Positions 165 through 44,124 of a stretch of 64,000 nt of DNA are shown in pieces. The position numbers were made by a program, and so were the translations under genes. The notes under the pieces are model-generated. The model had not been told where the DNA came from. It was given only the letters and a program-made list of their open reading frames with translations, and did no database searches. Numbering within the stretch: position 1 is the first letter of the stretch; each line of letters starts with the position of its first letter. The stretch is from Verrucomicrobiota bacterium. GTDB lineage: Bacteria; Verrucomicrobiota; Verrucomicrobiia; Chthoniobacterales; JAFAMB01. The stretch spans positions 301 through 64,300 of the forward strand of contig JAFBAP010000183.1 of NCBI GenBank assembly GCA_019247695.1, written 5' to 3'.

Positions 165-1103
165 TCAGATCGCTCCCGAGACATGGACCTCACGCCGTTC
201 TCGGAAATACGCTCGCGTTTCCGCTTCCCGGAACTGACCGTGATCTTTAACGCTATGAATGATGCTGTGGCCACGCTCCACCAAGGCTTCCGGTCGAGCT
301 AGTAATCCTCGGTGGTCGACGCCAAATGGTTCGTCGTCAGAACTGAAATCCTCGATCAGCAATCCAACCGCGCGGACGTTGAGGGCGATGACCACATCGT
401 CGCCGCAGGGTGTCGCCAGCCACTGGCAGGGATCGTCCAGCATCCCGGCCGCCTGCATCCGGTGCACGGCTTCCTTGGATAAGGCCAGGCCGCCGCCATT
501 GCAGTGTTCGCCCAAGCGGTAGCCGTTAAGCAAGGCGTGGCGAATCGTCTGTCGAATGCGGCGGTAGCGGCCCCACAACGCAAGTTGAAGTGCCGGCAGC
601 TTGCCGCAAGGCGTTCTCCTCCAGATGCTCACCTGACAGAGGAGCTTCTCGATCGCAGGTGCAGCCGGGAAATAATTTTTCAGGTGCGACAAGGAGGTCG
701 GATTAAATCGAAAATTCCCGAGTAAACCCACGTTGTCGTTCGCAGCAAACCGGCAGCAAACCTTGTTGGCAAATGGGGCGATAACCAACGAATCGGGATC
801 AATTTTCAGCACAAACTGCAGGTCCGGCATGGCCTTTAAAATGGCGAGGGCCGCAAGAATGCCCGCCGTGCTGCCTTGGCACCAACCGTCCGCCTTTCCC
901 ATGCGAGGATTCTTGATCGCGCCGGCCGCGCCTCGGCGCTCCCTGGGAACAAGCTCCAGGAGGTCACGTCCGCCCCGGTCGTCATCCACCAGGAGAAGGT
1001 AAAAATCACTCTCATAGTGGTAAAGGGAGGCGACCGTATCCCGAGCCCTTGCCAGCTCCGCCTCGCCGGGTCCAATCATCAGAATCACACCAAAGGTCGG
1101 CAT
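165..1103 (-). CDS. GT-A-fold-like protein of unknown specificity (paralog of 23436..24383)
   Basis: ORF 165..1145 starts on TTG. The ATG at 1103 aligns with the paralog N-terminus (MPTFGVILMIGPG vs MDARFAVILPVGP). Shared blocks: LVDD, K(I/L)D(P/T)DSLVI, LLNGYRLGEHC, IIHSVKDH, TRAYFR. Confidence 0.6.
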   Translation of the reverse strand: MPTFGVILMIGPGEAELARARDTVASLYHYESDFYLLLVDDDRGGRDLLELVPRERRGAAGAIKNPRMGKADGWCQGSTAGILAALAILKAMPDLQFVLKIDPDSLVIAPFANKVCCRFAANDNVGLLGNFRFNPTSLSHLKNYFPAAPAIEKLLCQVSIWRRTPCGKLPALQLALWGRYRRIRQTIRHALLNGYRLGEHCNGGGLALSKEAVHRMQAAGMLDDPCQWLATPCGDDVVIALNVRAVGLLIEDFSSDDEPFGVDHRGLLARPEALVERGHSIIHSVKDHGQFREAETRAYFRERREVHVSGAI

Positions 1104-1364
1104 CGTTGCGTGGCGCGAGTATCTTACAAAGGACGATGGTGTCAAACCGGCACCTCGTCGAGCCTCTGGAAAAGCGAGGCATTATCCGTATTCTCCGGAA
1201 AATCCAGGGGAAAATCCTCTGCGCCCGCTCCGCGGCAAACGACGCCCGGTTAGGACCCTCAAAAGCTCTCGGCAAGGTCCAGCCTTCCGAAGGCCGGTCT
1301 CACCCGGGGCGACGGGACCGGGATCAAGCCGGTTTTAGAAGCGCGCGGCCCTGCCGTCCACCGG

Positions 1365-2522
1365 TCACCGGTCTTGTGATCCGTTACCGGCAGCATTAGC
1401 CGCGACATCCACCACCCGGCACCCCTTTTGCGATTCGAGTGCTGCGGCAAATATCCGTTGGCTCTGAACCGCCTCGGCCGGGGTTGCGCAGCCGAAGCGG
1501 TCACCGAGCGCGCCTTCACGCTCCATCAGGAACGCCGCCCACATCTGCTGGATCACGTCGTTGAAGCCGACCTCGAAAATACCCCCGGTAATCGTCTTGA
1601 ACGGCACCTCGAACCCGAGCTCGGTCCGTTTCCAGGATTGTTCCTTGGTGCGTTCGAAGGTCCAGAAGCTTTTCGGTTCGGCCGTGCTGAACCGGACGCC
1701 GCCATCCGTGCCGAGCACCTCAAAAAACCAGGTGTTGGTCGCGCCGGGTGCCAACCGTTTCATTTCCAATCGCAGCGGAGTTTCCTGTCCTTGAATCCGG
1801 GTCCAGGTATGGAGCAGCGCATTATCCCAGGTATCGCACGGCGCTTTCCCGCCTTTGCCGTCCGGCCGTTCCGGATAACCTTTCTGGAGCTGGGCAAACA
1901 AGCGGACCGGTCCCCACCCCAGCCGCAGGGGCACATGGCAGACGTGCATGCCCAGATCGCCGAGTACGCCGATCTCGCCGCAGACCGCGCTTTGGCGTTT
2001 CCAGTTGGCCGTCTTGCCCGGATCAAGGTCGCTTGAATGATGAAAGCCCGAGACCACTTCCAGGACGCGGCCCAGCCGGCCCGAGCGTACCGCCTGGATG
2101 GCTCGCTGCGTCCCGGGCAGATAGGGGAACTCCGAACTGCACCGGACGAAGCGCCCGGTCGCGGCAGCCGTGCCGGCAATCCGCTCGGCGGCAGCCAGGT
2201 CGACTCCGAACGGTTTTTCGGCCAGCAAATCTTTGCCCGCCTCCAGCACCTCGCAGTAGATCTTTTCGTGCAGGTTGTGCGGGACCGCCACGTAGAGGAC
2301 CTCCACGTCGGGCCGCTCAAGCAACCGGCGGTAATCGGACGTCAGGAACGTCCGGCCGTCATCAAACCATTCCAGGGCCGCCGGATTCAGGTCCGCGACG
2401 CCCGCCAACTGGGGTTCGACGGACACATCGAGCAAAGCCCGCCAGCGCGCAAAGGCGCTGGCAATTTCGCGTCCCATCAGGCCGCCGCCGATAATGCCGA
2501 TTTTGACCGGTTTACGCTTCAT
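1365..2522 (-). CDS. Gfo/Idh/MocA-family NAD(P)-dependent oxidoreductase
   Basis: 385-aa ORF with ATG start. N-terminal Rossmann motif KIGIIGGGLMG, and EKP motif (LLAEKPFG) typical of this family. Confidence 0.85.
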   Translation of the reverse strand: MKRKPVKIGIIGGGLMGREIASAFARWRALLDVSVEPQLAGVADLNPAALEWFDDGRTFLTSDYRRLLERPDVEVLYVAVPHNLHEKIYCEVLEAGKDLLAEKPFGVDLAAAERIAGTAAATGRFVRCSSEFPYLPGTQRAIQAVRSGRLGRVLEVVSGFHHSSDLDPGKTANWKRQSAVCGEIGVLGDLGMHVCHVPLRLGWGPVRLFAQLQKGYPERPDGKGGKAPCDTWDNALLHTWTRIQGQETPLRLEMKRLAPGATNTWFFEVLGTDGGVRFSTAEPKSFWTFERTKEQSWKRTELGFEVPFKTITGGIFEVGFNDVIQQMWAAFLMEREGALGDRFGCATPAEAVQSQRIFAAALESQKGCRVVDVAANAAGNGSQDR

Positions 2523-2539
2523 ACGCTTCCCTTCCAGGT

Positions 2540-3364
2540 TTAAAGGTAGCGGCAGGCATCCTCGGCCTTTGCTCCCTCATGGACGATCGCCATTAAGGCC
2601 TTGGTCATACCGGCCGGGTTTTGGTGCTGAATCACGTTGCGCCCGTAGACAATGCCGGCGGCGCCTTGCCCGATCAACTGTTCGGTGCGCCGCAGGATCT
2701 CCATGTCTTCAGCCTTGCCGCCGCCGCGCACCAGGACCGGCACCCGCGCAACCTCAATTACTCGATGGTAATCAAGCGGGTTATCGGTCGGATCGGCCTT
2801 AATGACGTCGGCGCCGAGTTCGACCGCCTGGCGGACCAGCGGCAGAATCTTATTGATATCGCCGTCGACCATGTAACCGCCGGCTTTGGTGTTAGGCTGA
2901 AACACCAGCGGCTCGATCATCAGGGGAACCGCGTACCGGTCGCAATCCGGTTTGAGCTTCAGGATATTCCGGATGCATTGGTCGGTGACCTCGGGCTGCT
3001 CGGGGATCTGGAACAGGTTCACGACCACGCAGACGGCATCCAACCGCAACGCCTGTTCGACCGCCTGGTCGATCATCCGGCTGAAAAGGGCTCGCGGCAG
3101 CGCGCGCCCGTAGACGTTGGCCACGTCGGTGCGGAGCACCAGCGCCGGTTTTTGTTTTCCGGGAATGCGCTGGAGCACCTCGGCCTGGCCGACCGTCAAC
3201 TGGATGGCGTCCGGGTTGGCCCCGACGAGGGTTTTGACGGCGTTCTCGAGGTCCTCAATGCCGCCGAGAAAGCCGAGTTCGTTGAAAAACCCGTGATCAA
3301 CCGCCACGTCGAAGCAACGCTGCGATTTCGGGTTAAAGAGGCGGTTAAGCCGGAAGAGTTTCAT
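2540..3364 (-). CDS. Class I aldolase of the DhnA/FbaB/LsrF (DeoC-like) family
   Basis: ATG at 3364 (MKLFRLNRLF...; the 3406 start is TTG). Blocks FDVAVDHG, IKADPTD and VLVRGGGK resemble COG1830 aldolases (recognised from memory). Confidence 0.75.
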   Translation of the reverse strand: MKLFRLNRLFNPKSQRCFDVAVDHGFFNELGFLGGIEDLENAVKTLVGANPDAIQLTVGQAEVLQRIPGKQKPALVLRTDVANVYGRALPRALFSRMIDQAVEQALRLDAVCVVVNLFQIPEQPEVTDQCIRNILKLKPDCDRYAVPLMIEPLVFQPNTKAGGYMVDGDINKILPLVRQAVELGADVIKADPTDNPLDYHRVIEVARVPVLVRGGGKAEDMEILRRTEQLIGQGAAGIVYGRNVIQHQNPAGMTKALMAIVHEGAKAEDACRYL

Positions 3365-3402
3365 CGTGGGGGGTAGCGAGGCTCTGCGGTGGGGTGAACA
3401 GA

Positions 3403-4272
3403 TCAATGGGTCCGAACGGATTTCCGGTTCTCAAACCGGCCCGCCAGACAATCGTGCCGGAAGCGCTCGACGCGCTCAAGCAAACGTACATCGAGCTCAT
3501 TCAGATGGTTTCGATCGCTCAGCAATGGTTTGGCCGCCCGCATCACCCGCCGCAGCGCCCGCCGGGCAATAAAGCGGGTTGCCCGCGTGTGCTGGCGGAG
3601 AAAAAAGTCGTTGTCGGGTGGCAGTTCGAACAGGCGCGGCAGCCGGTGCGGTGCATAGTCAAGCCCGACCGAATCGCACCAATCAAGCCACTTGAAATCC
3701 AGAATCCGGTCGTCGATACGCACCGGTACCCAGGGATGAGCCAGCGCGTCCGAGATGATGGCGCCGTGCATCGCTTCGCTCAACAACACTTCGCAATCGC
3801 GGATCTGTGCGATTACGGTTTCGACATCCCCCTGCGGGTCGATGTAGTCCATGCCGACGTCGGCGCAGACGCATTTCCACGCGTCGAGGTTATGGTGGAA
3901 ATGCGGCATTAACGCGAATTTAAAACGCGGGCTCCGCTCCGAGGCGGGGATGAACCGGCGGGCCAGCATGCCGGGATCGGTAATCGCCAGATCCGGGCTC
4001 AACCCAAGCGCCTGAGCCGACCGGGGACCTCGCACACAGTAAATCTCCCAGGAGGAATCCAGGGCGGGCAACTTGCCGTACCCCACGCCGGAACCCATGA
4101 CGACCTTCCGGGGCAGCCTCTCGATCCCATGGTTCTGGTTGAGGATTGTGCCGATCCCCAAAAACACCGTCGACGGATCGTCGTCAAAACATTCAGGAAT
4201 CAGCCGGTGCCAAAGCCAGGCGTTAAGCAAGTCGCCAAAATTCCTGATCGCGCTCCAGTAAAACAGCTTCAT
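3403..4272 (-). CDS. Polysaccharide pyruvyl transferase, ExoV-like
   Basis: ATG at 4272. The N-terminus MKLFYWSAIRNFGDLLNAWL matches the ExoV-type NFGD motif; the length is about 290 aa. Confidence 0.7.
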   Translation of the reverse strand: MKLFYWSAIRNFGDLLNAWLWHRLIPECFDDDPSTVFLGIGTILNQNHGIERLPRKVVMGSGVGYGKLPALDSSWEIYCVRGPRSAQALGLSPDLAITDPGMLARRFIPASERSPRFKFALMPHFHHNLDAWKCVCADVGMDYIDPQGDVETVIAQIRDCEVLLSEAMHGAIISDALAHPWVPVRIDDRILDFKWLDWCDSVGLDYAPHRLPRLFELPPDNDFFLRQHTRATRFIARRALRRVMRAAKPLLSDRNHLNELDVRLLERVERFRHDCLAGRFENRKSVRTH

Positions 4273-4407
4273 GGGTGGGGGCGGCACAAACAAACCAGCA
4301 AATGCGTTTTCGGCAAGCCCGTTAACGTGCCGTCGACGGCCGGAGGGGCTTGACTTGGGGGCGTGCGTGGGGCACTGACAAAGGCCGTACGATCACGCGC
4401 AGTAATT

Positions 4408-5352
4408 ATGGAGGATAAATTTTCGGCGAGGGTCGCGTTACTTCTTCCGGCGTACAATTCCGCGGCTTACCTGCCGGAGATGGTGGCCCAGGCCCGGCAG
4501 CAAACGGTGCCGTTTGCCGAAATTATCTGTTACGATGACGCCAGCCGGGATGATACCGCCGCGGTGGCGGACGGGTTGGGCATCAGAGTGATCCGCGGGG
4601 CCGAGAACCGCGGGGCCGCATTTGCCCGCAACCGCCTGCTGGAGGCGACCCGTTGCGACTGGGTTCACTTCCACGACGTTGATGACGAGCTTTCGCCGCG
4701 GTTCCTCGAGAAGATGGTGCAACTGCTGTGCGATCCCCGGACCGCTGCGGTCTGCGCCACCAGAAAAACCTGGGACGATAACTCCCGACCAACGCGCATC
4801 GAAAGATTTCCCCGGCTTGAGTCGGAACCGGACCTGCTGGCATTCTTCCTGACCCATTTCATTCACCTCAACGCGTTCATCTTTCCCAGAGCGTTCCTCC
4901 TGCAGATCGGCGCTTTTCGCGACGAGTTACGCCTGGCGGAAGACACGGAGTTTGAGGCGCGGGCCGCCGCCCGCGGTTTAAAATGCCGGTACCTGGATGA
5001 AGCGTTGGTGGGTTGGCGGATCCACCCGCAATCGACCACCGGACGGGTCTCGCGACAGCTGCGCTGGCAATACGATCAACTTTACATCAAGAGGCTCCTG
5101 GAATGCCTGAATGCCCGTTACCGCCGGATCCTGGGGGAATCCTGGCTCTATCGGGCATGGTGGCTGTATTACACAGGCCAGGACATGTCCGATCGCCGCT
5201 ACATCGATATCGCCCGGCTCTGCGGCGTACGCCACCTTGCCGGCGCGAGCATGCTGGAGCGCCTGCTCAGCCACGGCGGCGGTCCGCGAACCGCCTTTTT
5301 TCTCAAGAAGTTCTGGTCGCGGCTCCGTCACGGCCGGGCCGGCGTGCATTGA
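4408..5352 (+). CDS. Glycosyltransferase family 2 (paralog set A)
   Basis: ATG at 4408 (the ORF opens on GTG 4363). Motifs LLLPAYNSAAYL, CYDDASRDDT and HFHDVDDEL (DxD). Paralogous to 5374..6345 and 21256..22224. Confidence 0.85.
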   Translation: MEDKFSARVALLLPAYNSAAYLPEMVAQARQQTVPFAEIICYDDASRDDTAAVADGLGIRVIRGAENRGAAFARNRLLEATRCDWVHFHDVDDELSPRFLEKMVQLLCDPRTAAVCATRKTWDDNSRPTRIERFPRLESEPDLLAFFLTHFIHLNAFIFPRAFLLQIGAFRDELRLAEDTEFEARAAARGLKCRYLDEALVGWRIHPQSTTGRVSRQLRWQYDQLYIKRLLECLNARYRRILGESWLYRAWWLYYTGQDMSDRRYIDIARLCGVRHLAGASMLERLLSHGGGPRTAFFLKKFWSRLRHGRAGVH

Positions 5353-5373: not shown

Positions 5374-6345
5374 ATGAATCTCAAACGGAGCGTTTCGCTG
5401 CTGATCCCGTGCTATAACGCCGCCCGGCACCTGCCGGGCCTCGCGCAGCAAATCGCAGCCCAGACGTCAGTTTTCGCCGAAGTGATCTGTTACGATGACA
5501 AAAGCCAGGACGACACTGCCACGGTGGCGCGGGCTCTCGGCTTCGACGTCATCACCGGGCGCGAGAACCGCGGCGCGGCGTTCGCTCGAAACCGGTTGTT
5601 GGAAGCCGCCTCTGCACCGTGGGTCCATTTTCACGATGCGGATGACGGGTTGGACCCGCGATTTCTGGAGCGACTGAGTTCCTGTCTCGGTGAGGAGCGC
5701 ACGGCCGTCATGTGCGCCGTCCGGAAGCGATGGAGCGGCGGCCGGGAACCGGACGTGGTTTACCGCCATCCGGAAGCCGGTACGCACACGGACTGGATCG
5801 CGTTTTTTATCCGGTATTTCGTGCATGTGAACGCGTTCATCTTTCCGCGTTCGGCCATCCTGCGCGCCGGTGGTTTTGCTGAAGATCTGCGGATTGCGGA
5901 AGATCGCGAATTTCTCGTGCGGGCAGCGGTGAGAGGCCTGCGATTCAGGTATGTGGATGAGGCGCTGGTCGACTGGGTGGTGCACCCGGACTCCACGCTG
6001 GGCCGCGCCGAAACGGAGACGCGGTGGCGGTTCGACGGCATCTTTCTGCGACGCTGTTACGATATCCTCGATGCTCCGCACCGGCGCATCCTGGGCGAAC
6101 ATGCGTTGCATCGCGGCTGGTGGCTCTGTTGGAACGGCGTCATACCCGGCGCCCGGGAAAACGTCGCGGTGGCCAACCTGTGCGGCGTGCGTCATGAGCC
6201 CGAGGCAAAGTTTGTGGGGCGAATCATGAGCCGCGTCCTGGGGACGCTGCCCTACTTCGTCCTGAAAAAGCGGTGGGCCAGCCTCGCCGCCCAATGGCGC
6301 GGCGCCGTCCCTGCGGGTGCTCCGGAGGGGTCTGAAACGCCGTGA
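5374..6345 (+). CDS. Glycosyltransferase family 2 (paralog set A)
   Basis: Motifs LLIPCYNAARHL, CYDDKSQDDT, ENRGAAFARNRLLEA and HFHDADDGL. Tandem to 4408..5352. Confidence 0.85.
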   Translation: MNLKRSVSLLIPCYNAARHLPGLAQQIAAQTSVFAEVICYDDKSQDDTATVARALGFDVITGRENRGAAFARNRLLEAASAPWVHFHDADDGLDPRFLERLSSCLGEERTAVMCAVRKRWSGGREPDVVYRHPEAGTHTDWIAFFIRYFVHVNAFIFPRSAILRAGGFAEDLRIAEDREFLVRAAVRGLRFRYVDEALVDWVVHPDSTLGRAETETRWRFDGIFLRRCYDILDAPHRRILGEHALHRGWWLCWNGVIPGARENVAVANLCGVRHEPEAKFVGRIMSRVLGTLPYFVLKKRWASLAAQWRGAVPAGAPEGSETP

Positions 6346-7967
6346 CGAATCAGATTTCGGATATGATGCGCAGGCTGTTCTTCGGCGGCTGGTACATTGT
6401 ACTTTGGTCCGCGGCGCTTTTTCCCGCTGCCCCACGCTCATGGGCAGCCGGCCCGCTGGAAGTGAAATTTGATCGGAACGGCATCTCGTCGCTGGTCTGC
6501 AATGGACAGGAATTCCTCGGCCACGCCGGCAAAGAGTGGTTCGGCGAACCGGGGATGCTGGTCCTTTACGAAGGCGATCCGGCCCTGCATTACGACCGGC
6601 CCGGCGAAACTGCCCGGCCCGATCCTGCCACGCTGGCCCGGGTTTACCCGTGGGGCTCGGTCCAGGTGCGCTACGACGTTCATGCGTCGGACCTCGACAT
6701 TTCCGTGGAGGTCCATAACGGGTCGACCCGGACGATGAGCAAGGTAGAGTGCGACCTCCTGTACCTTGAGTTTCCAGGCGATCGCACGCCGGACAAATGG
6801 GATAACACGAACCCGCCCAAAAATGACAACCGGAATGGCCCCACCATTCTGATCGCGGACTACGGCACCGGCAAGGTTGTGACGGTGGATCCGATGGCGT
6901 CCGTCCCAACCCTTACGCGATGGGGCTCTCGACAGGCACCCGGCCGGTACCAGCTTTCCGTGCAACGACCGGCGCCGCTTGCGCCCGGTGAAACCGTGCG
7001 GATGGCCAGCAGTTTGCGGTTCCGTTCGAGCGACACACCGGTGGATCAGGTCACCGATGACGTCGTCCGAGCGTTTCGCGAGCGCAATCCGCAGGAACTG
7101 GCCTGGCCCGATCGCCGGCCGATCGGTTCGCTGATCCTGGCGCGCGCCAACACCGGATGGCCAACAAACCCGCGCGGATGGTTCAACGACCGGAATATCA
7201 ACGTCACCACGCCGGAGGGACGGGTCACGTTCTTCAACCGTTTGTTCGACCTCGCCAACGGCACCCTCGCCAACCTGCGGGCCACGAACGCGCAGGGAAT
7301 CATCGTCTGGGACATCGAGGGCGAGCAATACCCGCAGGGTGAAGCGACCTACGCCGGCGATCCGCGCCTCGTGGCAAGACTCGCCCCCGAAATGGAACCG
7401 GTCGCCGATGACCTGTTCGCGAAATTCAGCGGCTCCCATTTTCGGACCGGCGTCTGCCTGCGTGCCGACGCCATCACGTTCCGGGCAAACGGCAGTTTTT
7501 ATCAAAAGCCGTTCACCGACCGCGAACTGCTTCGCAAATCTCTCGATGCACGGATTACCTACGCCAGGTCCAGGTGGGGCTGTACCCTGTTTTACATCGA
7601 TTCCTACGGCGGTTCACCGGCCTACCAGCCGGAGGTGTTGAAGGAACTTCATGAGAAGCACCCCGACGTGCTCCTGATTCCCGAATTCGAACAGACGCTT
7701 ACCTATGCCTACGCCGCGCCTTACAAAGAGCTGCGCTCGATCGCCGGCTCCGCCGGCACCGCGATCAGCCCTTGGCGGGCCCAGGCCGTCTACCCTAAAT
7801 GCTTTACCGTCATCAACACCGCAGACGGGCCGGTTGCCGGCAGGCGCGGCGAACTGGTAAAGGCCGTTCGTCGAGGCGATATTCTCCTTTATCGCGCGTG
7901 GTGGCGCGATCGCGATTTCAATACCCTCCGTTCCATTTTGGCGGAGGCAGGCCTCTCGGGACTTTGA
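6342..7967 (+). CDS. Secreted protein of unknown family, possibly a TIM-barrel glycosidase-like C-terminal half (paralog of 8957..10876)
   Basis: GTG at 6342 overlaps the upstream stop; the alternative ATG at 6363 gives signal-like MMRRLFFGGWYIVLWSAALFPAAPRSWAAG. Alternating strand-like blocks end in acidic residues (IIVWDIEGEQYPQ, CTLFYIDS, VLLIPEFE). Confidence 0.7.
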   Translation: MTNQISDMMRRLFFGGWYIVLWSAALFPAAPRSWAAGPLEVKFDRNGISSLVCNGQEFLGHAGKEWFGEPGMLVLYEGDPALHYDRPGETARPDPATLARVYPWGSVQVRYDVHASDLDISVEVHNGSTRTMSKVECDLLYLEFPGDRTPDKWDNTNPPKNDNRNGPTILIADYGTGKVVTVDPMASVPTLTRWGSRQAPGRYQLSVQRPAPLAPGETVRMASSLRFRSSDTPVDQVTDDVVRAFRERNPQELAWPDRRPIGSLILARANTGWPTNPRGWFNDRNINVTTPEGRVTFFNRLFDLANGTLANLRATNAQGIIVWDIEGEQYPQGEATYAGDPRLVARLAPEMEPVADDLFAKFSGSHFRTGVCLRADAITFRANGSFYQKPFTDRELLRKSLDARITYARSRWGCTLFYIDSYGGSPAYQPEVLKELHEKHPDVLLIPEFEQTLTYAYAAPYKELRSIAGSAGTAISPWRAQAVYPKCFTVINTADGPVAGRRGELVKAVRRGDILLYRAWWRDRDFNTLRSILAEAGLSGL

Positions 7968-7997
7968 AGAACCACTGCACGCGGCAGCGCAGGTACC

Positions 7998-8744
7998 TCA
8001 CAAAGGCCGCAGATTGAAATTCTTCCGTATGGCGGGGGTGACCGGACGGGTGCGCAGCGCTTTGGAAACGGTCGCCCGAATTCCGATGCTCTTCGGATTC
8101 GGGCCCGTATTATTTTCTCCGGTCATCTTCACGTAAATGGCGCCCGGGAAAGGCACAACGCTGAGGGGACGTCCGATTGCGGCGAGGTAAGCCGCGATGG
8201 TGTGATGCCCGTGCCGGAGGGCAAAAGAGTTCTCCGCCGGTCCAGCCAAGTCCTCCGGCAGCTCCTCGCGCGCGAACCGGATGATGTGGGAACTCCCGCA
8301 GCGCAGGTGAAAATCGTTGTGCCACTCGAGCCAGCGGGAGCCTTCGTCGTAGCTGTAGCCGCTCCGGATCATCCACCCATGGCTCTGCGGGTGCGCCGCG
8401 GCGAGGGCCGCCAGATCGTGGTGCACCAAGTCATCAGCGTCAACGCCCATCACGAATCCCCCGCCCCGCTCGCGCACCGCCATCAGCCCCCGCCGGACTT
8501 TGGCGGCTTTATCCGCGATCTGCGCCTGCTTGTTCGGGGCTGGAGGAGGGAAACTCTCCCGGATGATCTCAAGGCCGGTATGCGAGGGCAACCCGGTGGG
8601 CACGTCTGTGCAGATCAGAAAGATACGGAACTCTCGTGAGGTTTGCTGGTCGAGAGAAGCCAGGGTCCGCCGGCAGAGCCGCGAGACGCGATCCCAATCG
8701 TGGGAAGCCGCGCGGCCCTTCAGTGGAACGATGAAGTAAAGCAT
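7998..8744 (-). CDS. GT-A-like glycosyltransferase candidate
   Basis: ATG at 8744 (MLYFIVPLKG...). The upstream part of the 316-aa ORF is low-complexity. Has VMGVDADDLV (DxD-like). Sits between the two secreted paralogs. Confidence 0.55.
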   Translation of the reverse strand: MLYFIVPLKGRAASHDWDRVSRLCRRTLASLDQQTSREFRIFLICTDVPTGLPSHTGLEIIRESFPPPAPNKQAQIADKAAKVRRGLMAVRERGGGFVMGVDADDLVHHDLAALAAAHPQSHGWMIRSGYSYDEGSRWLEWHNDFHLRCGSSHIIRFAREELPEDLAGPAENSFALRHGHHTIAAYLAAIGRPLSVVPFPGAIYVKMTGENNTGPNPKSIGIRATVSKALRTRPVTPAIRKNFNLRPL

Positions 8745-8956
8745 GGGGAGGATATTTGCCGGGCGCGGGACAAATGCAATGCGCGTACCCCGGGGCGGCG
8801 CACTGGAGGTGCGGGTGCCGCGGCGGACGCTGGGCCCATTTGGGGCGGCTCGGTGGTCACTCCGGCAACTGCCTAAAGGCTCAGGCGTAATACAGTTATT
8901 ATTAATTTTATGGAATTCATGACGATTATCTACGCAGCGGATCATCATTTGTCGTC

Positions 8957-10876
8957 ATGCCCTTCAAAAAATATTTATCCATTCCTTTCCTGCTCGCCCT
9001 GGCGCTGCTCCTGCCCAACAAAGCAGCTCTCGCCCAGAGCACAGGATCTTCAACCACGACCGTCCCGCCCGGAACCCCCGGACCGGTCGCGATCCAACTG
9101 AACCAATACGGCTTAACTTCCCTGCAGGTGGGTGGCCGGGAGTGGCTCGGCCGGCGCTCCGGCAACACGCTCGTCGGTGACTTTTTCGTCGCTACCTGGA
9201 GAGGCAATAATTCATCCTCCAATTATGAGAGCCGCCTCACGGCCCAGTTAAACGGAACCACCACCAGCCAGACTTACCCGTGGGGATCCGCAACCTGCAC
9301 CTACACCACAACGTACAATACGCTAAACTACGACATTTCGGTAACTAACACCGACCCGACGCCGTTCTCAAAACTCCAGCTGATCCTGGGTGACGTCATG
9401 TTTCCGAATGCGGTTACGCCGAAGGGCTGGGATGATACCGATCCACCCAACGCCGATAATTACAGCGCTCCCGCGGTGTTGATCGGTGATTACGGCACAG
9501 GCATCCTGGGCCTGGTCAACGACGACGTGAACACCCCGGAGGTGACGCAGTTCAGCTCGAAATACTGGGGCGGTTACCCGCTTCGGGTCACGACCGAAAA
9601 GCCCATCCCCTCGGGCGCAACCGTCACGTTTCATGTCAGCCTGCGGTGGGCTGCGGAAGGAAGCACCAAGCAGCAGATTGCGCCGGAACTCTGGGCCGCC
9701 TTCCAGGCAACTCGTGTCCAGGAGTTGAATTGGAAAGACCGGCGGCCCATCGGGTCGATTTTCCTGGCCACCGTTCAGCGCAACTACCCGACCAATCCGC
9801 GGGGCTGGTATAATGATCCGACGATTAACGTTTTCACGGCCGCCGGCCAGGCCAGCTTCAAGTCCCGCATCATGACAACGGCCGCGCAGGTCGTGGCAGA
9901 ACTCAAATCCATGAACGCGCAGGGTTGCATCGTCTGGGACCTTGAGGGCGAGCAGTACCCCCAGGGCCTGGTGACCTTCATCGGGGACCCGACCCTGCTG
10001 CCAACCTTTGCGCCGGAAATGGATCCGATCGCCGATGGCTTTTTCAGCACGATCAAGAACGCCGGCTTCCGTGTCGGCGTCTGCCTGCGCTGCCAGCACC
10101 TCGTGCCCTTCTCCCAGGGCGGCTACGTCCAGGAGGAATACCCCGATAATCAATCGATCTTTAACGCCCTGGATCAGCGCATCACCTACGCCCAGCAGCG
10201 CTGGGGCTGCACCCTCTTCTATATCGACACCAACGGTGGCGTAAATGGGGTTTACGACGTCAGCATCTTCCAGCAATTGCAGGAAAAACATCCCGACGTG
10301 CTGCTGATTCCTGAAGAGAAGTACGATGCGTACTTTGCTTACACCGCGCCCTACTATGAACTTCGTCCGATGGGCACCAGCGCGGGCACGAGCGGCACTC
10401 CGGCAAGCGCCGTGGCGATCACCCCAGGGGCCTTTTCGGTGATCAACGTCGTCGATGGTGATTACGTCAACCGGCGCAACGAACTGCTCGCGGCAGTAAC
10501 ACGCGGCGACATCCTCCTTTACCGCACGTGGTATGCCAGCCCGGAGTTCGCCGCCGTGAAGAGCATCTACCAGCAGGCCACGGCAAACGGCGGACCCGTG
10601 GCGCAGGGAGACGTTTTCTCGGTGCATGCGGGCCAGGATACGGTGCTCGATGTCCTTACAAACGACTTCGACCAGATTGTCGGGCGCACGCCCCTGCAAA
10701 TCATCAGCTACACCCAGCCGACGTCCGGTTCGGTCTACACCCAGAACGGGTCGCTTCACTACGTGGCGCCGCTCACACCACCCGCGAGCGGTTTGAACAG
10801 CTTCACCTTCAAGTATACCATTTCGGACAGTGTCAAGACCAGCACTGCGCCGGTAACGGTTAACGTGGGCCAGTAG
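8957..10876 (+). CDS. Secreted paralog of 6342..7967 with an extra C-terminal cadherin/Ig-like domain
   Basis: Signal peptide MPFKKYLSIPFLLALALLLPNKAALA-QS. Shared blocks YPWGS, DYGTG, YPTNPRGW, IVWDLEGEQYPQG, CTLFYIDT, VLLIPE and RGDILLYR. The tail VLDVLTNDFD...SFTFKYTISD is typical of cadherin-like/VCBS-type Ig repeats. Confidence 0.75.
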   Translation: MPFKKYLSIPFLLALALLLPNKAALAQSTGSSTTTVPPGTPGPVAIQLNQYGLTSLQVGGREWLGRRSGNTLVGDFFVATWRGNNSSSNYESRLTAQLNGTTTSQTYPWGSATCTYTTTYNTLNYDISVTNTDPTPFSKLQLILGDVMFPNAVTPKGWDDTDPPNADNYSAPAVLIGDYGTGILGLVNDDVNTPEVTQFSSKYWGGYPLRVTTEKPIPSGATVTFHVSLRWAAEGSTKQQIAPELWAAFQATRVQELNWKDRRPIGSIFLATVQRNYPTNPRGWYNDPTINVFTAAGQASFKSRIMTTAAQVVAELKSMNAQGCIVWDLEGEQYPQGLVTFIGDPTLLPTFAPEMDPIADGFFSTIKNAGFRVGVCLRCQHLVPFSQGGYVQEEYPDNQSIFNALDQRITYAQQRWGCTLFYIDTNGGVNGVYDVSIFQQLQEKHPDVLLIPEEKYDAYFAYTAPYYELRPMGTSAGTSGTPASAVAITPGAFSVINVVDGDYVNRRNELLAAVTRGDILLYRTWYASPEFAAVKSIYQQATANGGPVAQGDVFSVHAGQDTVLDVLTNDFDQIVGRTPLQIISYTQPTSGSVYTQNGSLHYVAPLTPPASGLNSFTFKYTISDSVKTSTAPVTVNVGQ

Positions 10877-10927
10877 CGGCGCCGGCACCGGGGCCTGACC
10901 CGTCACGTACTAACAACTAAAATGTCG

Positions 10928-10964
10928 AGGCCGGCGGTATTACCTACCGCCGGCCTTTTCTTTC
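10928..10964 (+). terminator. Rho-independent terminator after 8957..10876
   Basis: Perfect 10-bp stem AGGCCGGCGG / CCGCCGGCCT with a 9-nt loop, followed by TTTCTTTC. Confidence 0.8.
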
Positions 10965-10983: not shown

Positions 10984-11169
10984 ATGAGGGTCCGCGAAGC
11001 AATCAAGCTCATCGAAAACGATGGATGGTTTCTGGTGCGAACACGCGGCAGTCACCGGCAGTACAAGCATCCTCAGAAGCCCGGCTTGGTCACGATCGCG
11101 GGCAAACCGGGTGATGAGCTTGCTCCTGGTACAACGAATAGTATCCTCAAACAGGCAGGATTAAAATGA
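10984..11169 (+). CDS. hicA: HicA-family mRNA interferase toxin
   Basis: 61 aa. Matches LIENDGWFLVRTRGSHRQYKHP...VTIAGKPGDELAPGTTNSILKQAGL, a typical HicA. ATGA overlap with the next gene. Confidence 0.9.
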   Translation: MRVREAIKLIENDGWFLVRTRGSHRQYKHPQKPGLVTIAGKPGDELAPGTTNSILKQAGLK

Positions 11170-11378
11170 ATCGGTATCTCGTCATCATCGAGCGGACCAG
11201 CAGCGGACTCTCGGCTTACTCGCCGGATTTGCCGGGCTGTGTGGCAACCGGAGCGACCAGGGAGGAGCTCGAACGGAAAATGCACGATGCGATCGAGTTT
11301 CACCTGGAAGGTTTGCGCCTCGAAGGTGAACCGGTTCCCTTGCCGCGGTCGGAGGCGACCTACTGCGAAGCAGGCTGA
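11166..11378 (+). CDS. hicB: HicB-family antitoxin (UPF0150-type N-domain only)
   Basis: 70 aa. YLVIIERTSSGLSAYSPDLPGCVATGATREELERKMHDAIEFHLEGL matches the HicB/UPF0150 fold signature. Confidence 0.85.
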   Translation: MNRYLVIIERTSSGLSAYSPDLPGCVATGATREELERKMHDAIEFHLEGLRLEGEPVPLPRSEATYCEAG

Positions 11379-11413
11379 GATTAACGGGAACCGCGGCAAG
11401 CTTTGCCTGGGAT

Positions 11414-12520
11414 TTACAGTCTTCCGCTCACCTCCTGCAGGACACGCCGCCACGCCTTCCAGGCTTGTTCGAAAGTCCAGCCGGGGCGCAGCGAAGGCTT
11501 CTCTCCCGGCGGCCATTGTTCGTACAGATTTTGAACATACCCGGCCAATGGACCGGCCGCGCCCGGCGGAAAGCACTCGCCGTAACCGCAAACGCGGATC
11601 TCACGGGCAATCGCGCCGTTTTCCGGTCCGATGAAGATTAACGGCCTCGGCAGACACATCAACAATCCCAACTTACTCGGCCAGAGCAGGCCTCGGGTGC
11701 AGGGTTTCTGGGTTACGAGCATCGCGTGCGCCTGAAGGAGAACGTCCGTCAGCCGGTCTTCGGGCGCGTACGGACGCCATTCCACCCGGGCCAGCTTGAG
11801 CTGCTCCGCCCGGCGCCGGGCCGGCTCCCAGGACGCACCGCCGCCCTGGAACGCAAGGGTGACCGGGCACCCGCGATCTTCCAGAATGCGTTGTGCGGCC
11901 ATCGCGGTCTCCCAGTCGTGCGCCTGGCCGAGATTGCCGGAGTACAGCCAGGTAAACCCATCCCTGGACGGATACGCCAGCCGGCCCGGACCGGTCCGGT
12001 CCAGGCCGTGCAGCAGCCATGGACGGATGATTTCAGTGTCGATCCCGTACCGGCGCTTGAGGTGGTCCCGCATGTCTGCATCCAGACAGATCGTTCGGGT
12101 GGTGGCCCGGTAGCACGAACCCGTCGCCGTATGCAGAATGCTCCGGATGGGTGCGGGCACCGCGCCACCCAGCGCCAGCGCCAGCTCCGGGTAGAGATCG
12201 AGCGCCCAGTGAACGGATTTAGCCCGCTTGAGCGCGCAGAGTGCCGTGGCGACCAGCAGGATCGCTGGCGGCGATGACGTCGAGATCACGACGTCAGCCC
12301 GCCCGGCCAGCAGGCCCCGGCACAGGAGACGGCTCAAGGCCTTGAGCTCCCGCCCCGCGCGCGAATACCGGCTCTTGGCGCGAACCCGGTAATCCTGGCC
12401 GGAATCGATCATTACCACCTGATGACCTTCGCCCCGCAGCGCCGCCGCCAGATCCCCCACCAGCTTCGCCGTCGGCGAAGGGTCGGGTGGTTTGTACTGG
12501 TTAAGAATAAAGACGCGCAT
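11414..12520 (-). CDS. Glycosyltransferase family 4 (WcaI-like)
   Basis: N-terminus MRVFILNQYKPPDPSPTAKLVGDLAAALRGEGHQV is typical of GT4/GT-B. 368 aa. Confidence 0.8.
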   Translation of the reverse strand: MRVFILNQYKPPDPSPTAKLVGDLAAALRGEGHQVVMIDSGQDYRVRAKSRYSRAGRELKALSRLLCRGLLAGRADVVISTSSPPAILLVATALCALKRAKSVHWALDLYPELALALGGAVPAPIRSILHTATGSCYRATTRTICLDADMRDHLKRRYGIDTEIIRPWLLHGLDRTGPGRLAYPSRDGFTWLYSGNLGQAHDWETAMAAQRILEDRGCPVTLAFQGGGASWEPARRRAEQLKLARVEWRPYAPEDRLTDVLLQAHAMLVTQKPCTRGLLWPSKLGLLMCLPRPLIFIGPENGAIAREIRVCGYGECFPPGAAGPLAGYVQNLYEQWPPGEKPSLRPGWTFEQAWKAWRRVLQEVSGRL

Positions 12521-13358: not shown

Positions 13359-14930
13359 ATGCTGAATCACCTCGATCGAATCTTTGCGCGTAAACCCGGT
13401 CTCGCCGGTTGGCTGCTGGCGTTGGTCGCGGGCTACGCCTGGGTACTGCTCCTGTGGCACTTGTCCGCCTTCTGGCGAGTCCTGGAGGACTACGAGTACG
13501 GGTGGGCCGTCCCGGTCCTGGTCCTCGCCCTGCTGTGGCGGCGGCGGCACCTGCCGGCACCCGAACCGAAGACGTCGGTCACGGCGTTTGCCGGTGTTTT
13601 CCTGGGCACGCTGCTGCTGCTCCCGTTGCGGATAATCCTCGACGCAAACCTGGATTGGCGGCCCGCCGTCTGGGCTTTGGCTGCAGTCGTGATCACGGTG
13701 ACCCTGTGCGCGATCTATCTGGCGGGAGGCAAACCGTGGCTGGCAGCTTTGGCGTTCCCCGCCCTTTTTGTCCTTACCGGCGTTCCCTGGCTGGGCAGGT
13801 TGGAACTCCCCATCACTTCCGGTCTCATGCGGTTTGGAGCGTTTGTCGCGACGGAATTGTTGAACCTTATCGGCGTGGCCGCCTGCCAGCGCGGGAGCGT
13901 GGTCGAAACCGCGGCCGGCCTGATCGGGGTCGATGAGGCGTGCAGCGGGATTAAAAGCCTGCAAACCATGGTTGCCGTAGGGCTCTTTCTTTCCGATTTT
14001 ACCGCTTGGCGTGGGCCCAGGCGTTTCCTGATCGTGCTCATCGGTGCGGTGCTGGCGACGGCGGCGAACCTTGGCCGGTTGGTCCTGCTCGCCTGGGTGG
14101 GCAGCCAGGGAGGTTCCGGCGGTGTGGAACGGTGGCATGACCCGGCGGGCGCCGTGGCATTTGCCGCGGCGTGCCTCGCGCTGGTGGCCATCGTACGCAA
14201 GCTGCCCGCGGCGCCGCCCGCCCCGCCGCCGGCGGTGCATCCGAGGCCGGCGATAGCCGCTTCCCGCCCTTCGTGGGCGTTCCCCGGCCTGGTTCTTTGC
14301 GTCCTCTGGCTGGGCGGGGCCGAACTGGTGCGTCTTTACTGGTTTCAGCCCCGCCAAGTCTCGGCCGGGGCACGCTGGACGGCGGTCTGGCCGGAACCTT
14401 TCAACGGGGCAGGTTTAAAAGTGCTGCGCGTCTCGGACGCCGTCCGCAACCAATTGCAATGCGATACCGGAAAGGCGGTGCGCTGGTCCGACCGGCCCGG
14501 TACGGAATGGATCGGTTACTTTTTCGAATGGCGCCCCGGTTTGCACGCCTACTTCGCACGCTCGCAGCACTCCCCGGAAATCTGCCTGCCTGCGACCGGC
14601 CGGCGCCTGCACAAGGACCTGGGATTCTTCGACATCAAAGCGCCCGGGCACCTGATCCAGGTTCACCACCTCCTGTTTGAAGACGACTCGGGCCCGTTGA
14701 ACGTCTTCTTTATCGTGGACGGCTCGGCGGTCCGCGACAACGTCGAGCAGCGGCAGGCCGGTTCCGTCACCGGCCGGCTCCGCAGCGTCTGGGAACGGCA
14801 CAAAGAGGCTGATCGCCGGTCCCTGGAGTTAATCGCGGCCGGTTACCTGACCCCGCAGTCTGCTCGAGAGGAAGCGCAACGCTGGCTGACGCAGATCATC
14901 CGTCCGGAAAACGGGCCGGTGACCCTGTAA
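13359..14930 (+). CDS. Exosortase fused to a C-terminal EpsI-family domain
   Basis: Multi-TM N-terminal half with the ordered exosortase signature: Cys (DEACSGIKSL), Arg (ANLGRLVLL) and His (ERWHDPAG). The soluble C-terminal ~190 aa resemble EpsI (HSPEICLPATG). Confidence 0.85.
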   Translation: MLNHLDRIFARKPGLAGWLLALVAGYAWVLLLWHLSAFWRVLEDYEYGWAVPVLVLALLWRRRHLPAPEPKTSVTAFAGVFLGTLLLLPLRIILDANLDWRPAVWALAAVVITVTLCAIYLAGGKPWLAALAFPALFVLTGVPWLGRLELPITSGLMRFGAFVATELLNLIGVAACQRGSVVETAAGLIGVDEACSGIKSLQTMVAVGLFLSDFTAWRGPRRFLIVLIGAVLATAANLGRLVLLAWVGSQGGSGGVERWHDPAGAVAFAAACLALVAIVRKLPAAPPAPPPAVHPRPAIAASRPSWAFPGLVLCVLWLGGAELVRLYWFQPRQVSAGARWTAVWPEPFNGAGLKVLRVSDAVRNQLQCDTGKAVRWSDRPGTEWIGYFFEWRPGLHAYFARSQHSPEICLPATGRRLHKDLGFFDIKAPGHLIQVHHLLFEDDSGPLNVFFIVDGSAVRDNVEQRQAGSVTGRLRSVWERHKEADRRSLELIAAGYLTPQSAREEAQRWLTQIIRPENGPVTL

Positions 14931-16033: not shown

Positions 16034-17734
16034 ATGACTTGGCCTCAAGCGGCTGCACTCCTCTTTCTGAGCCTTACACCGGTTCACGGCGGTTTGCTGG
16101 ATCAGTTTCGCGTGTGGCAAAGCCAGCAATCCACGCGTACCGCGGCCCAGGCGCTTAAGGATAATAAGCTCGACGAGGCGACGGTCGCAGTCCGCCGGGC
16201 GATCCAACTCGATCCGAATAATGCCGAAGCCATCGATCTGATGGCGCAGCTCAGCGCGTTGGTGTCGCCGGAGGAAGCGGTGAAATGGCGCGAGCGGATG
16301 ACGAAGCTTGCGCCGCAATCTCCGGAGGCGTGGTTAAGCCTGGCCGAAGCCGCGATGAACGCCCGGCAATACCAAGCGGCCGGCAGCGCGCTCGACCGCG
16401 TGCCCGGGCCGGCCCGCTCCCTTCGCTTTTACCGTGATGCGGGTGTGCTGGCCCTGGCGATGAACAACCGGTCTGAGGCGGATGATTTTTTCCGGCGGGC
16501 CGCGGCCGCGCCGGGAGCAACCAATGCGGACCGTCTAAACCTCGACGCGCTCGACCTCTCCTCCGGCCAACCTGACCGCGTTTCGTCCGCCAAGGCCGGT
16601 CTTACGGCCCTGGCCACCGATCCGTCCGTCGCGGAAAAATGCCACCGCCTGCTGGCCACCTTCGAGATTTCGAACCACGATTTTACCGGGGCCGAGCCGC
16701 ATGTGGACTATTTGCTCCAGCTGCCGCAGGTCCGGTTTGAGGATGTGCTCATCGCGCTGGATCTGTTTCTGCAAACGGACCGAACCAGGTTCGACCAACT
16801 GCTGCATAACTGCGTCGTCCGCTTCCAGGACGAACCGTTGCCGGCTTCCGAGGTGGTGCGCTGGTTGAATGCAAAAAATCTGCCGGCCGAAGCTCACAGC
16901 GTCGTTTCCAAGGTGACCCCGCACGTGGCAAATGATCCGGGGTTCAAAGCGATCCTGGCGGACACCTTCGTGCGCCAGAAGGATTGGGCAGGTCTCCAGG
17001 AGTGGACCAAGGCCCCGGACTGGGGCACAAATGAATACCTGCGGGTTGCCTACAACCTTAAGGCGCGCCGTGAACTGGGCAACCTGGTGCTTTCAGAAGC
17101 GCTGAATGCGTGGCGCGAAAGCCTGGCCCGGGCCGGACAGCAGGCGGAATGCGTATCGGTCCTCTTCCACCTGGCCATGGAGTGGGGTTGGCAAACCGAG
17201 GCTGAAAGCGCGCTCTGGGCCGCGGCGGATGCTTCCTCCGATCGGCGTGAGGCGCTGGCGGCGCTCTGGCGCTGGTATGGCCGGAAGCAAAATACCCAGG
17301 GGCTGTTCCGCGTAGCCAACCGGCTTCTGGAGCTCGATTTCAACGATCGCGCCGTCAAGAACAATGTCGTGATGCTCGGTTCTCTCCTCGGCATCAAGAA
17401 CGGGTCATTCCTGGATTGGGCCCGGGACAACTGGGAGAATGACCGGGGCAACCACCCGCAGTTCGGCACCACGTACGCTTTCACGCTTTTTCAAAAAGGC
17501 GATCTCGACGACGCCGCCCGGGTGCTTGCACAAATCAACCCGGACGTCCTGAACAACCCGGATGACGCCTTGTACGCCGGCATCATCAAAGCTGCCCTGG
17601 GCCAGCAGGAAGACGCCAGGAAACTTTTGGAAGCGGCTTCACGGGGCGCGCTCTTGCCTGAAGAAAAAGATTTGTTGATGAAAAGCCGCTTATCTTTAGC
17701 GGCAGGAGCGCCTTTGCACTCCGGGCGACGGTAA
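16034..17734 (+). CDS. TPR-repeat protein with signal peptide
   Basis: 566 aa. N-terminal MTWPQAAALLFLSLTPVHG, and repeated TPR-like helices (AIQLDPNNAEAIDLMAQL, etc.). Confidence 0.75.
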   Translation: MTWPQAAALLFLSLTPVHGGLLDQFRVWQSQQSTRTAAQALKDNKLDEATVAVRRAIQLDPNNAEAIDLMAQLSALVSPEEAVKWRERMTKLAPQSPEAWLSLAEAAMNARQYQAAGSALDRVPGPARSLRFYRDAGVLALAMNNRSEADDFFRRAAAAPGATNADRLNLDALDLSSGQPDRVSSAKAGLTALATDPSVAEKCHRLLATFEISNHDFTGAEPHVDYLLQLPQVRFEDVLIALDLFLQTDRTRFDQLLHNCVVRFQDEPLPASEVVRWLNAKNLPAEAHSVVSKVTPHVANDPGFKAILADTFVRQKDWAGLQEWTKAPDWGTNEYLRVAYNLKARRELGNLVLSEALNAWRESLARAGQQAECVSVLFHLAMEWGWQTEAESALWAAADASSDRREALAALWRWYGRKQNTQGLFRVANRLLELDFNDRAVKNNVVMLGSLLGIKNGSFLDWARDNWENDRGNHPQFGTTYAFTLFQKGDLDDAARVLAQINPDVLNNPDDALYAGIIKAALGQQEDARKLLEAASRGALLPEEKDLLMKSRLSLAAGAPLHSGRR

Positions 17735-17757
17735 ACGGAGCGCTGCGGACGGCCGTT

Positions 17758-18609: not shown

Positions 18610-18622
18610 AATGCCACCGCAG

Positions 18623-35083: not shown

Positions 35084-35311
35084 TTAATCCGGTCGGGAAC
35101 AGGCCGTTAAATTCACTCATTCGCACCGTATAGAGACTTCTTTAACGAACGCATTTTTGTCCGTGCGCCGCGGCTCCCCTTCCCGTTTACAGGCCCGCGC
35201 CCGGGTCTCGTCCCGCCGGGAACGTCCGGCGGCGTGCCGTCTGCAACGGGCAGACCTGAATCCACGATGATCCCAGTCGTCACCACGCCAGGTCCGGCAG
35301 CTGCGCCCTTG

Positions 35312-41404: not shown

Positions 41405-41429
41405 AGCCCTGAACTGGTTTCCCTGGCGA

Positions 41430-44089: not shown

Positions 44090-44124
44090 AAATACGCGAG
44101 GTGTAAATATTTGGATGCTCAGGC

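Follow-up and report, generated by a model that had tools for sequence, protein, structure and literature searches.

The stretch of DNA analysed here, 64,000 nucleotides (nt) from a Verrucomicrobiota bacterium of the Chthoniobacterales and referred to below as the window, carries in its first part (~nt 1 to 39,400) a polysaccharide cluster of ~39 kb that is Wza/Wzc and exosortase-linked, and within that cluster two genes for apparently secreted proteins, termed A and B, bracket a third gene, X, on the opposite strand. A and B belong to what is probably a new glycoside-hydrolase-like family, and this account is concerned with the evidence for that and with what the two proteins may do to the exopolysaccharide (EPS) whose synthesis the cluster encodes. 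A reading made beforehand from the sequence alone (the sequence-only reading) had proposed them as candidate EPS-processing glycosidases. The two genes and their parts are as follows, with residues of A numbered throughout from the Met at nt 6363.

6342..7967, plus strand: paralog A, an open reading frame (ORF) of 541 amino acids (aa) from a GTG at 6342
6363..6446, plus strand: signal-peptide-like N-terminus of A, MMRRLFFGGWYIVLWSAALFPAAPRSWA/AGP, read by eye from the translation
6450..7028, plus strand: N-terminal beta-sandwich of A (residues ~30-222), 14 strands in the AlphaFold2 model, with a conserved YPWGS motif and N119
7098..7964, plus strand: predicted (beta/alpha)8 barrel of A (residues ~246-534), from AlphaFold2 models, its Foldseek matches being glycoside hydrolase (GH) barrels
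8957..10876, plus strand: paralog B, 639 aa from an ATG start, with signal peptide, beta-sandwich, barrel and Ig tail
8957-9034, plus strand: signal peptide of B (aa 1-26), MPFKKYLSIPFLLALALLLPNKAALA/QST, read by eye from the translation
10586..10864, plus strand: C-terminal Ig-like domain of B (aa 544-636), of the bacterial Big_9 type (Pfam PF17963, E 8.3e-9)
5467..6909, 6438..7505 and 9368..10906, minus strand: antisense ORFs of 355-512 aa over A and B, of a kind typical for DNA of 61-63% G+C, not treated as genes

A and B are collinear, aligning end to end across the first 545 residues of B with 41% identity, 59% positives and 4 gaps over 506 aa (BLASTP, E 8e-134), a paralogy far beyond chance which the sequence-only reading had rightly called; the shared blocks it quoted are all present in both translations, except that A reads WPTNPRGW where YPTNPRGW had been given. 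A probably starts at one of two ATGs, 6363 or 6366, which would give 534 or 533 aa, and the database copy (P0001), 100% identical, has 533; for B the database copy, again 100% identical, is P0014, 'hypothetical protein JO015_21235 [Verrucomicrobia bacterium]'. The long antisense ORFs were rejected as genes and taken to be GC-rich artefacts, and it is the plus-strand genes that are conserved. Signal peptides had been claimed for both proteins, and judged by eye the N-termini of both are indeed Sec-like; residues 1-22 of A have a predicted local distance difference test (pLDDT) score below 50, and a signal-like N-terminus is present in 181 of 236 family members by a crude hydropathy test. The tail peculiar to B, earlier described as cadherin/Ig-like, is Ig-like, matching the full-length Big_9 model (1-89 of 89) at 36.7 bits against a cutoff of 23.6, but the cadherin half of that description did not last, Cadherin_5 being below threshold. 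The C-terminus of B, as translated, has no PEP-CTERM sorting signal.

That the two proteins could not be placed in a named family has held up under wider searching. The cores of A, B and 40 family members give no Pfam or NCBIfam match above noise in a scan at E ≤ 1, no GHL family is among the hmmscan matches of the 40 at that threshold, and the family has no Pfam or NCBIfam match to Glyco_hydro_114 (PF03537), Spherulin4 (PF12138) or GHL13 (PF14883). With the same proteins the Melibiase, Glyco_hydro_31 and Glyco_hydro_36 hidden Markov models (HMMs) give no match above noise, the sole Pfam trace for models of clan GH-D being Glyco_hydro_36N at E 0.036-0.11, far under its 27-bit cutoff. Among PDB chains a profile search at E ≤ 10 yields no match to the family, and a single-sequence search at the same threshold yields one at chance level only, GroES 8wuc (E 1.3, 10.9 bits). 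Every source that names proteins of this type has them as 'hypothetical protein', and a literature search found no description of the family.

The family is large. An exhaustive profile search gives 1,643 representatives at 50% identity (E ≤ 1e-3), 942 of them with E ≤ 1e-30, and a scan of GTDB with one genome per species gives 371 loci (individual homologous loci are designated below by L numbers). In that scan the carriers are mostly soil Verrucomicrobiota (Chthoniobacterales), Acidobacteriota (Bryobacterales, Terriglobia), Armatimonadota (Abditibacterium and Capsulimonas among them) and Planctomycetota, with one Victivallaceae genome and a few Proteobacteria beyond these main phyla; tblastn against annotated plasmids and phages found no homologue. 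Catalinimonas alkaloidigena is a cultivable carrier, and the genera of related metagenome-assembled genomes include Chthoniobacter besides Capsulimonas and Abditibacterium. Several genomes have more than one copy within 10 kb, with three BLAST hits at L006 and two each at L019, L028, L054, L062, L064, L066 and L080. Long members append Big_7, Big_2, PA14, ConA-like Laminin_G_3 or peptidoglycan-binding domains, and one is fused to a pectate-lyase-like beta-helix, all of them partners typical of extracellular glycan-directed proteins. Since barrel-only members of ~330 aa retain the same conserved residues, the barrel would be the functional core. As observations in their own right, a 330-aa barrel-only member lies between a large non-ribosomal peptide synthetase gene and a GT4 glycosyltransferase (GT) gene on metagenomic contigs (L084 8001..8993, L085 4268..5260), an unusual pairing for a GH-like protein, and at L001 a 529-aa protein without Pfam match (17107..18696, minus strand), which BLAST did not detect as a family member, is encoded 5.5 kb from the family gene.

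What sort of proteins are these? An AlphaFold2 model of A, built on a 40-sequence alignment (mean pLDDT 91.1, predicted template modelling score 0.88), has a disordered signal region, an all-beta domain and a canonical (beta/alpha)8 barrel, with strands b1-b4 at 254-258, 312-316, 361-367 and 409-413, and b5-b8 at 437-440, 454-456, 483-485 and 507-511; a model of the barrel by itself reaches pLDDT 94.1. The sequence-only reading had foreseen this fold for the C-terminal half, and both the model and its GH matches bear it out, but it had missed the N-terminal beta-sandwich. It is because that sandwich precedes the barrel that the overall architecture is GH36/GH31-like. The best matches of the whole of A to PDB structures, at Foldseek probability 1.0, with their template modelling (TM) scores, include the following.

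3mi6, 6phw and 6jhp, GH36 alpha-galactosidases: E 2.7e-14 to 9e-14, TM 0.42-0.45
8x1b and 9awt, GH36 galactosaminidase: E ~3e-13 to 5e-12, TM 0.46-0.47
7qqf and 7qqh, GH31 MYORG: E from 2.5e-12, TM ~0.4

Among the significant whole-protein matches listed the sole non-GH is a polysaccharide lyase, 5nok (E 4.5e-9, ~270 columns), a match which we take to cover the beta-sandwich. With the barrel alone as query, all 50 PDB matches listed are glycosidases (GH13, GH29, GH31, GH36, GH18, GH66 and GH5). Foldseek against viral structures (BFVD) gives weak generic GH-like matches only, and hhalign of the family profile with the single sequence of Escherichia coli YicI (GH31) gives 0.2% probability with the b3 region alone aligned. 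On these models the likeness to known families is one of fold and architecture, not of family.

Active sites of TIM-barrel enzymes are on the C-terminal face of the barrel, and the barrel residues given next, conserved in 258 members aligned to the family HMM, all map to that face of the predicted barrel. In the loop after b1, N269-P-R-G-W273, N269 is 100% conserved; at the end of b2 and just after it come W316 (100%), D317 (95%), E319 (98%) and G320 (100%); R367 at the end of b3 is 100%, and Y411 and D413 at the end of b4 are each 99% (256 aligned members for D413); after b5 are P440 (100%) and E441 (100%, E in 255 of 256 members), and after b8 W513 (97%). The arginines R252, R271, R367 and R404 of A are invariant. 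The conservation of the acids of the DIEGE and YID motifs had been expected, and their E and D are the 98% and 99% just given; the third acid, the E of LIPE (E441), is the most conserved of the acids and had not been singled out. The codons of the three candidate carboxylates are:

7317..7319, plus strand: E319 of A (WDIEGE, after b2), candidate catalytic or substrate-binding carboxylate
7599..7601, plus strand: D413 of A (FYIDS, C-terminal end of b4), proposed nucleophile from its position
7683..7685, plus strand: E441 of A (LIPEF, just after b5), proposed general acid/base
9944-9946, 10226-10228 and 10313-10315, plus strand: the equivalents in B, E330, D424 and E453; B retains all the conserved residues

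Clans GH-D and GH-H both have their nucleophile, an Asp, at the end of b4, and in clan GH-H the acid/base is a Glu that follows b5. It is from these positions that D413 is proposed as nucleophile and E441 as acid/base of a retaining glycoside hydrolysis, the chemistry we infer, at an active site that would be made up, on the C-terminal face, of N269-P-R-G-W, W316-D-x-E319-G, R367, Y411-x-D413 and P440-E441. E319 may be an alternative acid/base or a substrate ligand, and the conserved arginines are possible ligands for an acidic substrate. A and B would then be secreted (periplasmic or surface) two-domain carbohydrate-active enzymes with the beta-sandwich packed on the barrel.

One could instead envisage A and B as non-catalytic carbohydrate-binding or matrix pseudo-enzymes that organise EPS at the surface. 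The Ig-like tail of B and the long adhesin-like Ig/PA14 arrays of many relatives would suit that role, but three carboxylates at or near strand ends, 98-100% conserved in 258 members from several phyla, including the 330-aa barrel-only forms, argue for catalysis, and we consider the role very improbable. Another thought is that the barrel performs non-glycosidic chemistry, either removing pyruvyl, acetyl or phosphodiester decorations or acting as a lyase on acidic EPS. The four invariant arginines could bind carboxylates, and genes for two pyruvyl transferases and one acetyltransferase are present in the locus. However, nearly all the significant fold neighbours listed are glycoside hydrolases, the lone lyase match spans only its ~270 columns, presumed to be the beta-sandwich, and strand-end carboxylates are what GHs classically show, so that non-glycosidic chemistry has a slim chance of being right.

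If A and B are glycoside hydrolases, two clans invite comparison. With clan GH-D (GH36 3mi6, 6phw, 6jhp and 8x1b; GH31 MYORG and GAA) the family shares the layout of beta-sandwich plus (beta/alpha)8 barrel. D413, conserved in 99%, is at the predicted end of b4, the strand at which that clan has its nucleophile, and may correspond to it. The C-terminal beta-domains of GH36 and GH31 are absent from the A/B family, no HMM match above noise places it in the clan by sequence, and the TM-scores are 0.42-0.47. Clan GH-H (GH13, GH70 and GH77; GH13 members TreZ 3vgd and 2qps), together with the GH66 dextranases, supplies the matches that rank highest for the barrel alone (E 3.8e-6, TMq up to 0.54), and the spacing of b4 Asp and b5 Glu fits the GH13 nucleophile and acid/base. 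Unlike members of that clan the family has no R-x-D or NHD signature, no domain B and no Alpha-amylase Pfam match. The GHL families of Pfam (GHL5, 6, 10, 13 and 15) are alike in concept, being TIM-barrel GH-like families without biochemistry that are tied to GH27/31/36, but with no GHL match in 40 members the A/B family is not one of them. By sequence, HMM or close fold match A and B are members of none of the families compared; in shape they most resemble GH36/GH31, as far as a predicted model can tell.

The likeness to clan GH-H also raises the prospect of transfer instead of hydrolysis, with A and B as retaining transglycosylases that remodel, branch, cyclise or ligate EPS outside the cytoplasm in the manner of the GH13, GH70, GH31 and GH66 transferases. 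Clan GH-H, whose b4 Asp/b5 Glu arrangement they share, is rich in transglycosylases, the top TM-scores of the barrel are to GH13/GH66 (2qps, 6sav and 3vmp), and two paralogs have been kept within a biosynthetic cluster. Weighed against this, there is no sequence similarity to GH13, GH70, GH31 or GH66, conservation is lacking in the signature regions of GH13 and at the b7 Asp, and transfer is indistinguishable from hydrolysis in silico. We regard transglycosylation as improbable, though less so than non-glycosidic chemistry.

The two paralogs also differ from one another where it might matter. Directly beside the putative catalytic positions, the residues that have become fixed differ between A orthologues and B orthologues:

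A-type: after b3 CLRADA; after b4 YIDS(Y/F)GG; after b5 PEFEQT
B-type: after b3 CLRCQHL; after b4 YIDTNGG; after b5 PEEKYD
Family consensus: after b3 RPQ; after b4 VDSNG; after b5 PEH

Such clade signatures are as expected if the duplicates diverged in sub-specificity with both still active, and A and B may thus recognise different linkages or decorations.

The setting of the two genes bears on what their substrate might be. The cluster has at least thirteen GT2/GT4 genes, two pyruvyl transferases, a WcaF-like acetyltransferase, a tetratricopeptide repeat protein and the following.

13359..14930, plus strand: exosortase, 523 aa, with the EpsH domain on residues 22-280 only
17758..18609, plus strand: ABC-2 type permease (Wzm-like)
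33671..35083: Bac_transf initiating transferase
36555..37307, plus strand: Wza
37304..39403, plus strand: Wzc

Beyond 39.4 kb are carotenoid/squalene genes and dnaG-rpoD, and because these follow the cluster the window is taken to be chromosomal DNA. The order A, X (opposite strand), B recurs at a locus with an 83%-identical A and again on a metagenomic contig with a 57%-identical A, where the cassette is flanked by genes for a pyruvyl transferase, a GT2 and a methyltransferase on one side and for a GT4, a hexapeptide transferase and an exosortase on the other. At a Chthoniobacterales locus with a 59%-identical A, A and X are adjacent and a B-type copy comes directly after a GT2 gene. The immediate surroundings of A and B in the window are these.

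4363..5352 and 5374..6345, plus strand: two GT2 genes directly upstream of A (Pfam Glycos_transf_2, E 2.4e-30 and 4.2e-20)
7998..8744, minus strand: gene X between A and B, GT-A-like (GT2-like), 248 aa, with an invariant DADD motif
8745..8956: divergent spacer of 212 bp between X and B, AT-rich at 8880-8940
10927..10957, plus strand: strong terminator-like hairpin 50 nt past the stop of B, a 13-bp stem with 9 G-C pairs and a T-rich tail

The stop of the second GT2 gene (..6345) overlaps the GTG start of the A ORF (6342), and A thus appears to be translationally coupled to it; A would be expressed together with the two GT2 genes, closing a GT2-GT2-A unit. B would be expressed from its own promoter and terminator, the X-B spacer being presumed to hold promoters for both genes; in or near it are three weak promoter-like matches on the minus strand, consensus matches only. 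Gene X most likely encodes the 248-aa form starting at M69 of a 316-aa reading, which was rejected in favour of the shorter form. The identical protein carries the NCBI name 'glycosyltransferase family 2 protein', and no more than 27 homologues of it are detectable. X itself has no Pfam match at E ≤ 1, the DADD motif is invariant in 17 of its homologues, and in PDB its profile matches two GT2 enzymes best, 5hea at E 0.005 and 6p61 at E 0.019, in alignments that take in the N-terminal motif and DxD. The earlier description of this middle gene as GT-A-like finds weak though coherent support here, and the assignment is a reasonable, if weakly supported, one.

Secreted or periplasmic hydrolases encoded in the operon for an EPS include PslG (GH39), PelA (GH166), the C-domain of PgaB (GH153), BcsZ/CcsZ (GH8/GH5), Sph3 (GH135) and Ega3 (GH114). 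The analogy to A and B would be one of function, a hydrolase made by the cluster that makes its substrate, and most of these enzymes are likewise TIM barrels; in function it is this group that A and B would most resemble. An example of the paradigm of EPS-cluster-encoded hydrolases is given in PMC7710045. They are unrelated in sequence to A and B and absent from the 50 fold matches listed, whether for whole protein or barrel, and their systems are mostly synthase-dependent, whereas the cluster here is of the Wza/Wzc, undecaprenyl-phosphate-initiated, exosortase-linked type. By this analogy A and B would cut the cluster's polymer to trim it, release it or control its quality, in the manner of PslG, PelA, BcsZ and PgaB, and its Ig-like tail may serve B as an anchor or a spacer on the cell surface or the polymer. 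What the analysis shows is the paralogy, the size and conservation of the family, its predicted fold and its genomic setting; catalysis, the residues responsible, mechanism and substrate are inferences from these. Processing of the locus's own EPS is plausible; to the fuller statement, in which both proteins are secreted and act as glycosidases on the EPS of their own cluster, we give about an even chance.

How far does such a context extend through the family? Some distant homologues are beside Wza-Wzc-Wzx-GT4, one from Bryobacteraceae closes a deacetylase(DUF3473)-methyltransferase-GT4-GT4-acetyltransferase-epimerase-GT4-WecA operon, and one barrel-only member is next to a GT4 gene. HMMs made from the window's own GTs, a test that undercounts, were applied within 10 kb at 51 long loci, and found at least one GT at 22, at least two at 13, and Wza or Wzc at 6. 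In a further sample Pfam was run on 222 flanking proteins, two per side, in halves of 111, and in the second half Glycos_transf_1 led with 8 of 111, ahead of hexapeptide transferases with 5 and Poly_export with 2. Glycan-biosynthesis genes are the commonest class of neighbour, yet in a minority of loci, and the notion of the family as a universal component of EPS loci was rejected on these neighbour counts and flanks. The computational checks that the sequence-only reading had suggested all went its way. Of the earlier proposal of EPS processing, what stands is a cassette inside EPS clusters here and in some Acidobacteria; as a description of the family it falls short, with a GT near only 22 of the 51 loci.

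A number of observations weigh against A and B as glycosidases of their own EPS. The insensitive HMM test left 29 of the 51 loci with no GT detected within 10 kb; in the first half of the flanking proteins GTs made up only ~2 of 111, and regulators of LacI/GntR type, ABC transporters and DUF1559 proteins were there instead; and across the family most immediate neighbours are unrelated genes, none of them dominant. As to the enzymes themselves, no curated GH family or solved structure is near enough for transfer of function. The barrel-only matches are weak and prefer no family, the best E-value being that to GH13 TreZ and the top TM-scores 0.54 (barley amylase 2qps, GH13), 0.53 (6sav) and 0.51 (3vmp; GH13/GH66). 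The catalytic roles are read wholly from strand positions in a predicted model. Where clan GH-D has its acid/base Asp, after b6, the family has no invariant acid (E456, 60%), and its invariant E441 is after b5; where clan GH-H has its b7 Asp the family has N485 (50%) and D488 (72%), so that the GH-H triad is incomplete.

Because glycan-biosynthesis neighbours are in a minority of loci, a good part of the family could be engaged in foraging, and its ancestral role may have been degradation of foreign glycans. Applied to A and B, this would make them foraging glycosidases for foreign polysaccharides (of plants, fungi or the EPS of other microbes), with their location in an EPS cluster incidental or for competition. 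The loci without detectable GT, the sugar regulators and transporters among the neighbours, and the PA14, ConA-like and pectate-lyase-like fusions, typical of degradative enzymes, are all in keeping with it, as is the distribution of the family in soil phyla that general knowledge links to polysaccharide degradation. It fits less well with what is seen around A and B: in this lineage the A/X/B cassette, down to 57% and up to 83% identity, remains within the EPS/exosortase cluster, A is apparently coupled in translation to a GT2 gene, unrelated phyla place homologues at Wza-Wzc or at the ends of GT operons, and no transporter or regulator for uptake of products is adjacent to A or B in the window. 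Foraging is thus rather unlikely for these two proteins, and action on the cluster's own polymer is the reading that we carry forward.

Several other features of the window deserve mention. A GFO/IDH/MocA oxidoreductase, a DeoC/LacD-type aldolase and the two pyruvyl transferases, at 1365..4293 (minus strand) and 18963..20219 (plus strand), suggest an unusual or pyruvylated (acidic) sugar in the polymer. The cluster carries a Wzm-like ABC-2 permease as well as Wza/Wzc, parts of two different routes of polysaccharide export. The C-terminal ~240 aa of the exosortase align best with long exosortases of XrtD/XrtW type and are below all subtype cutoffs. Two genes without Pfam match, at 165..1145 and 23436..24383 (both minus strand), have in common a GT-A-like N-terminal motif, VILMIGPGEAELARARDTVASL and AVILPVGPATEEIVRARDLLDSL respectively, and could encode additional glycosyltransferases that have gone unrecognised; L006 has a homologue of the first next to its A orthologue, and L005 has another (42-44% identity). 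Also without Pfam match are 28702..30180 (plus strand), which with at least 8 hydrophobic segments is a candidate Wzy polymerase or O-antigen-ligase-like protein, and 35234..36637 (plus strand), with one N-terminal hydrophobic segment. Between B and a GT4 gene a 172-aa ORF (11073..11591, minus strand) is 76% identical to an ORF in the same position at L005 and is probably a real small gene. Past the cluster, 39744..45253 (minus strand) encodes an acyltransferase, a squalene/phytoene synthase, an amine-oxidase-type desaturase and a 753-aa protein in which a polyprenyl synthetase domain is confined to residues 438-699, the N-terminal ~430 aa having no assignment; at 54902..55924 (minus strand) a 339-aa ORF has a weak partial match to IS200-like Y1 transposases (E 8.6e-6) and is far longer than a normal TnpA.

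Going further, and with appreciably less confidence than in the EPS reading itself, one may tentatively see A and B as founding a new CAZy GH family, defined by the Asp(b4)/Glu(b5) pair and a GH36-like N-domain and constituting a branch of the alpha-galactosidase/alpha-amylase-type barrels, in which the paralogs would be dedicated endo-enzymes of differing linkage specificity for a pyruvylated, acetylated, exosortase-linked EPS of soil Verrucomicrobia and would be required for its biogenesis or release. No paradigm is challenged by this, EPS clusters with their own hydrolase being well known; what is new is a probable GH-like family, large and taxonomically broad, and its role would be a familiar one. 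If its proteins are active it would be a new GH family, one whose ~1,600 clusters (50% identity) are spread over Verrucomicrobiota, Acidobacteriota, Armatimonadota and Planctomycetota. Those soil phyla are abundant and poorly cultured, and the chemistry and turnover of their EPS matter for soil aggregation and carbon cycling. A cognate hydrolase would, in addition, be a tool with which to fragment exosortase-linked EPS, solve its structure and disperse biofilms.

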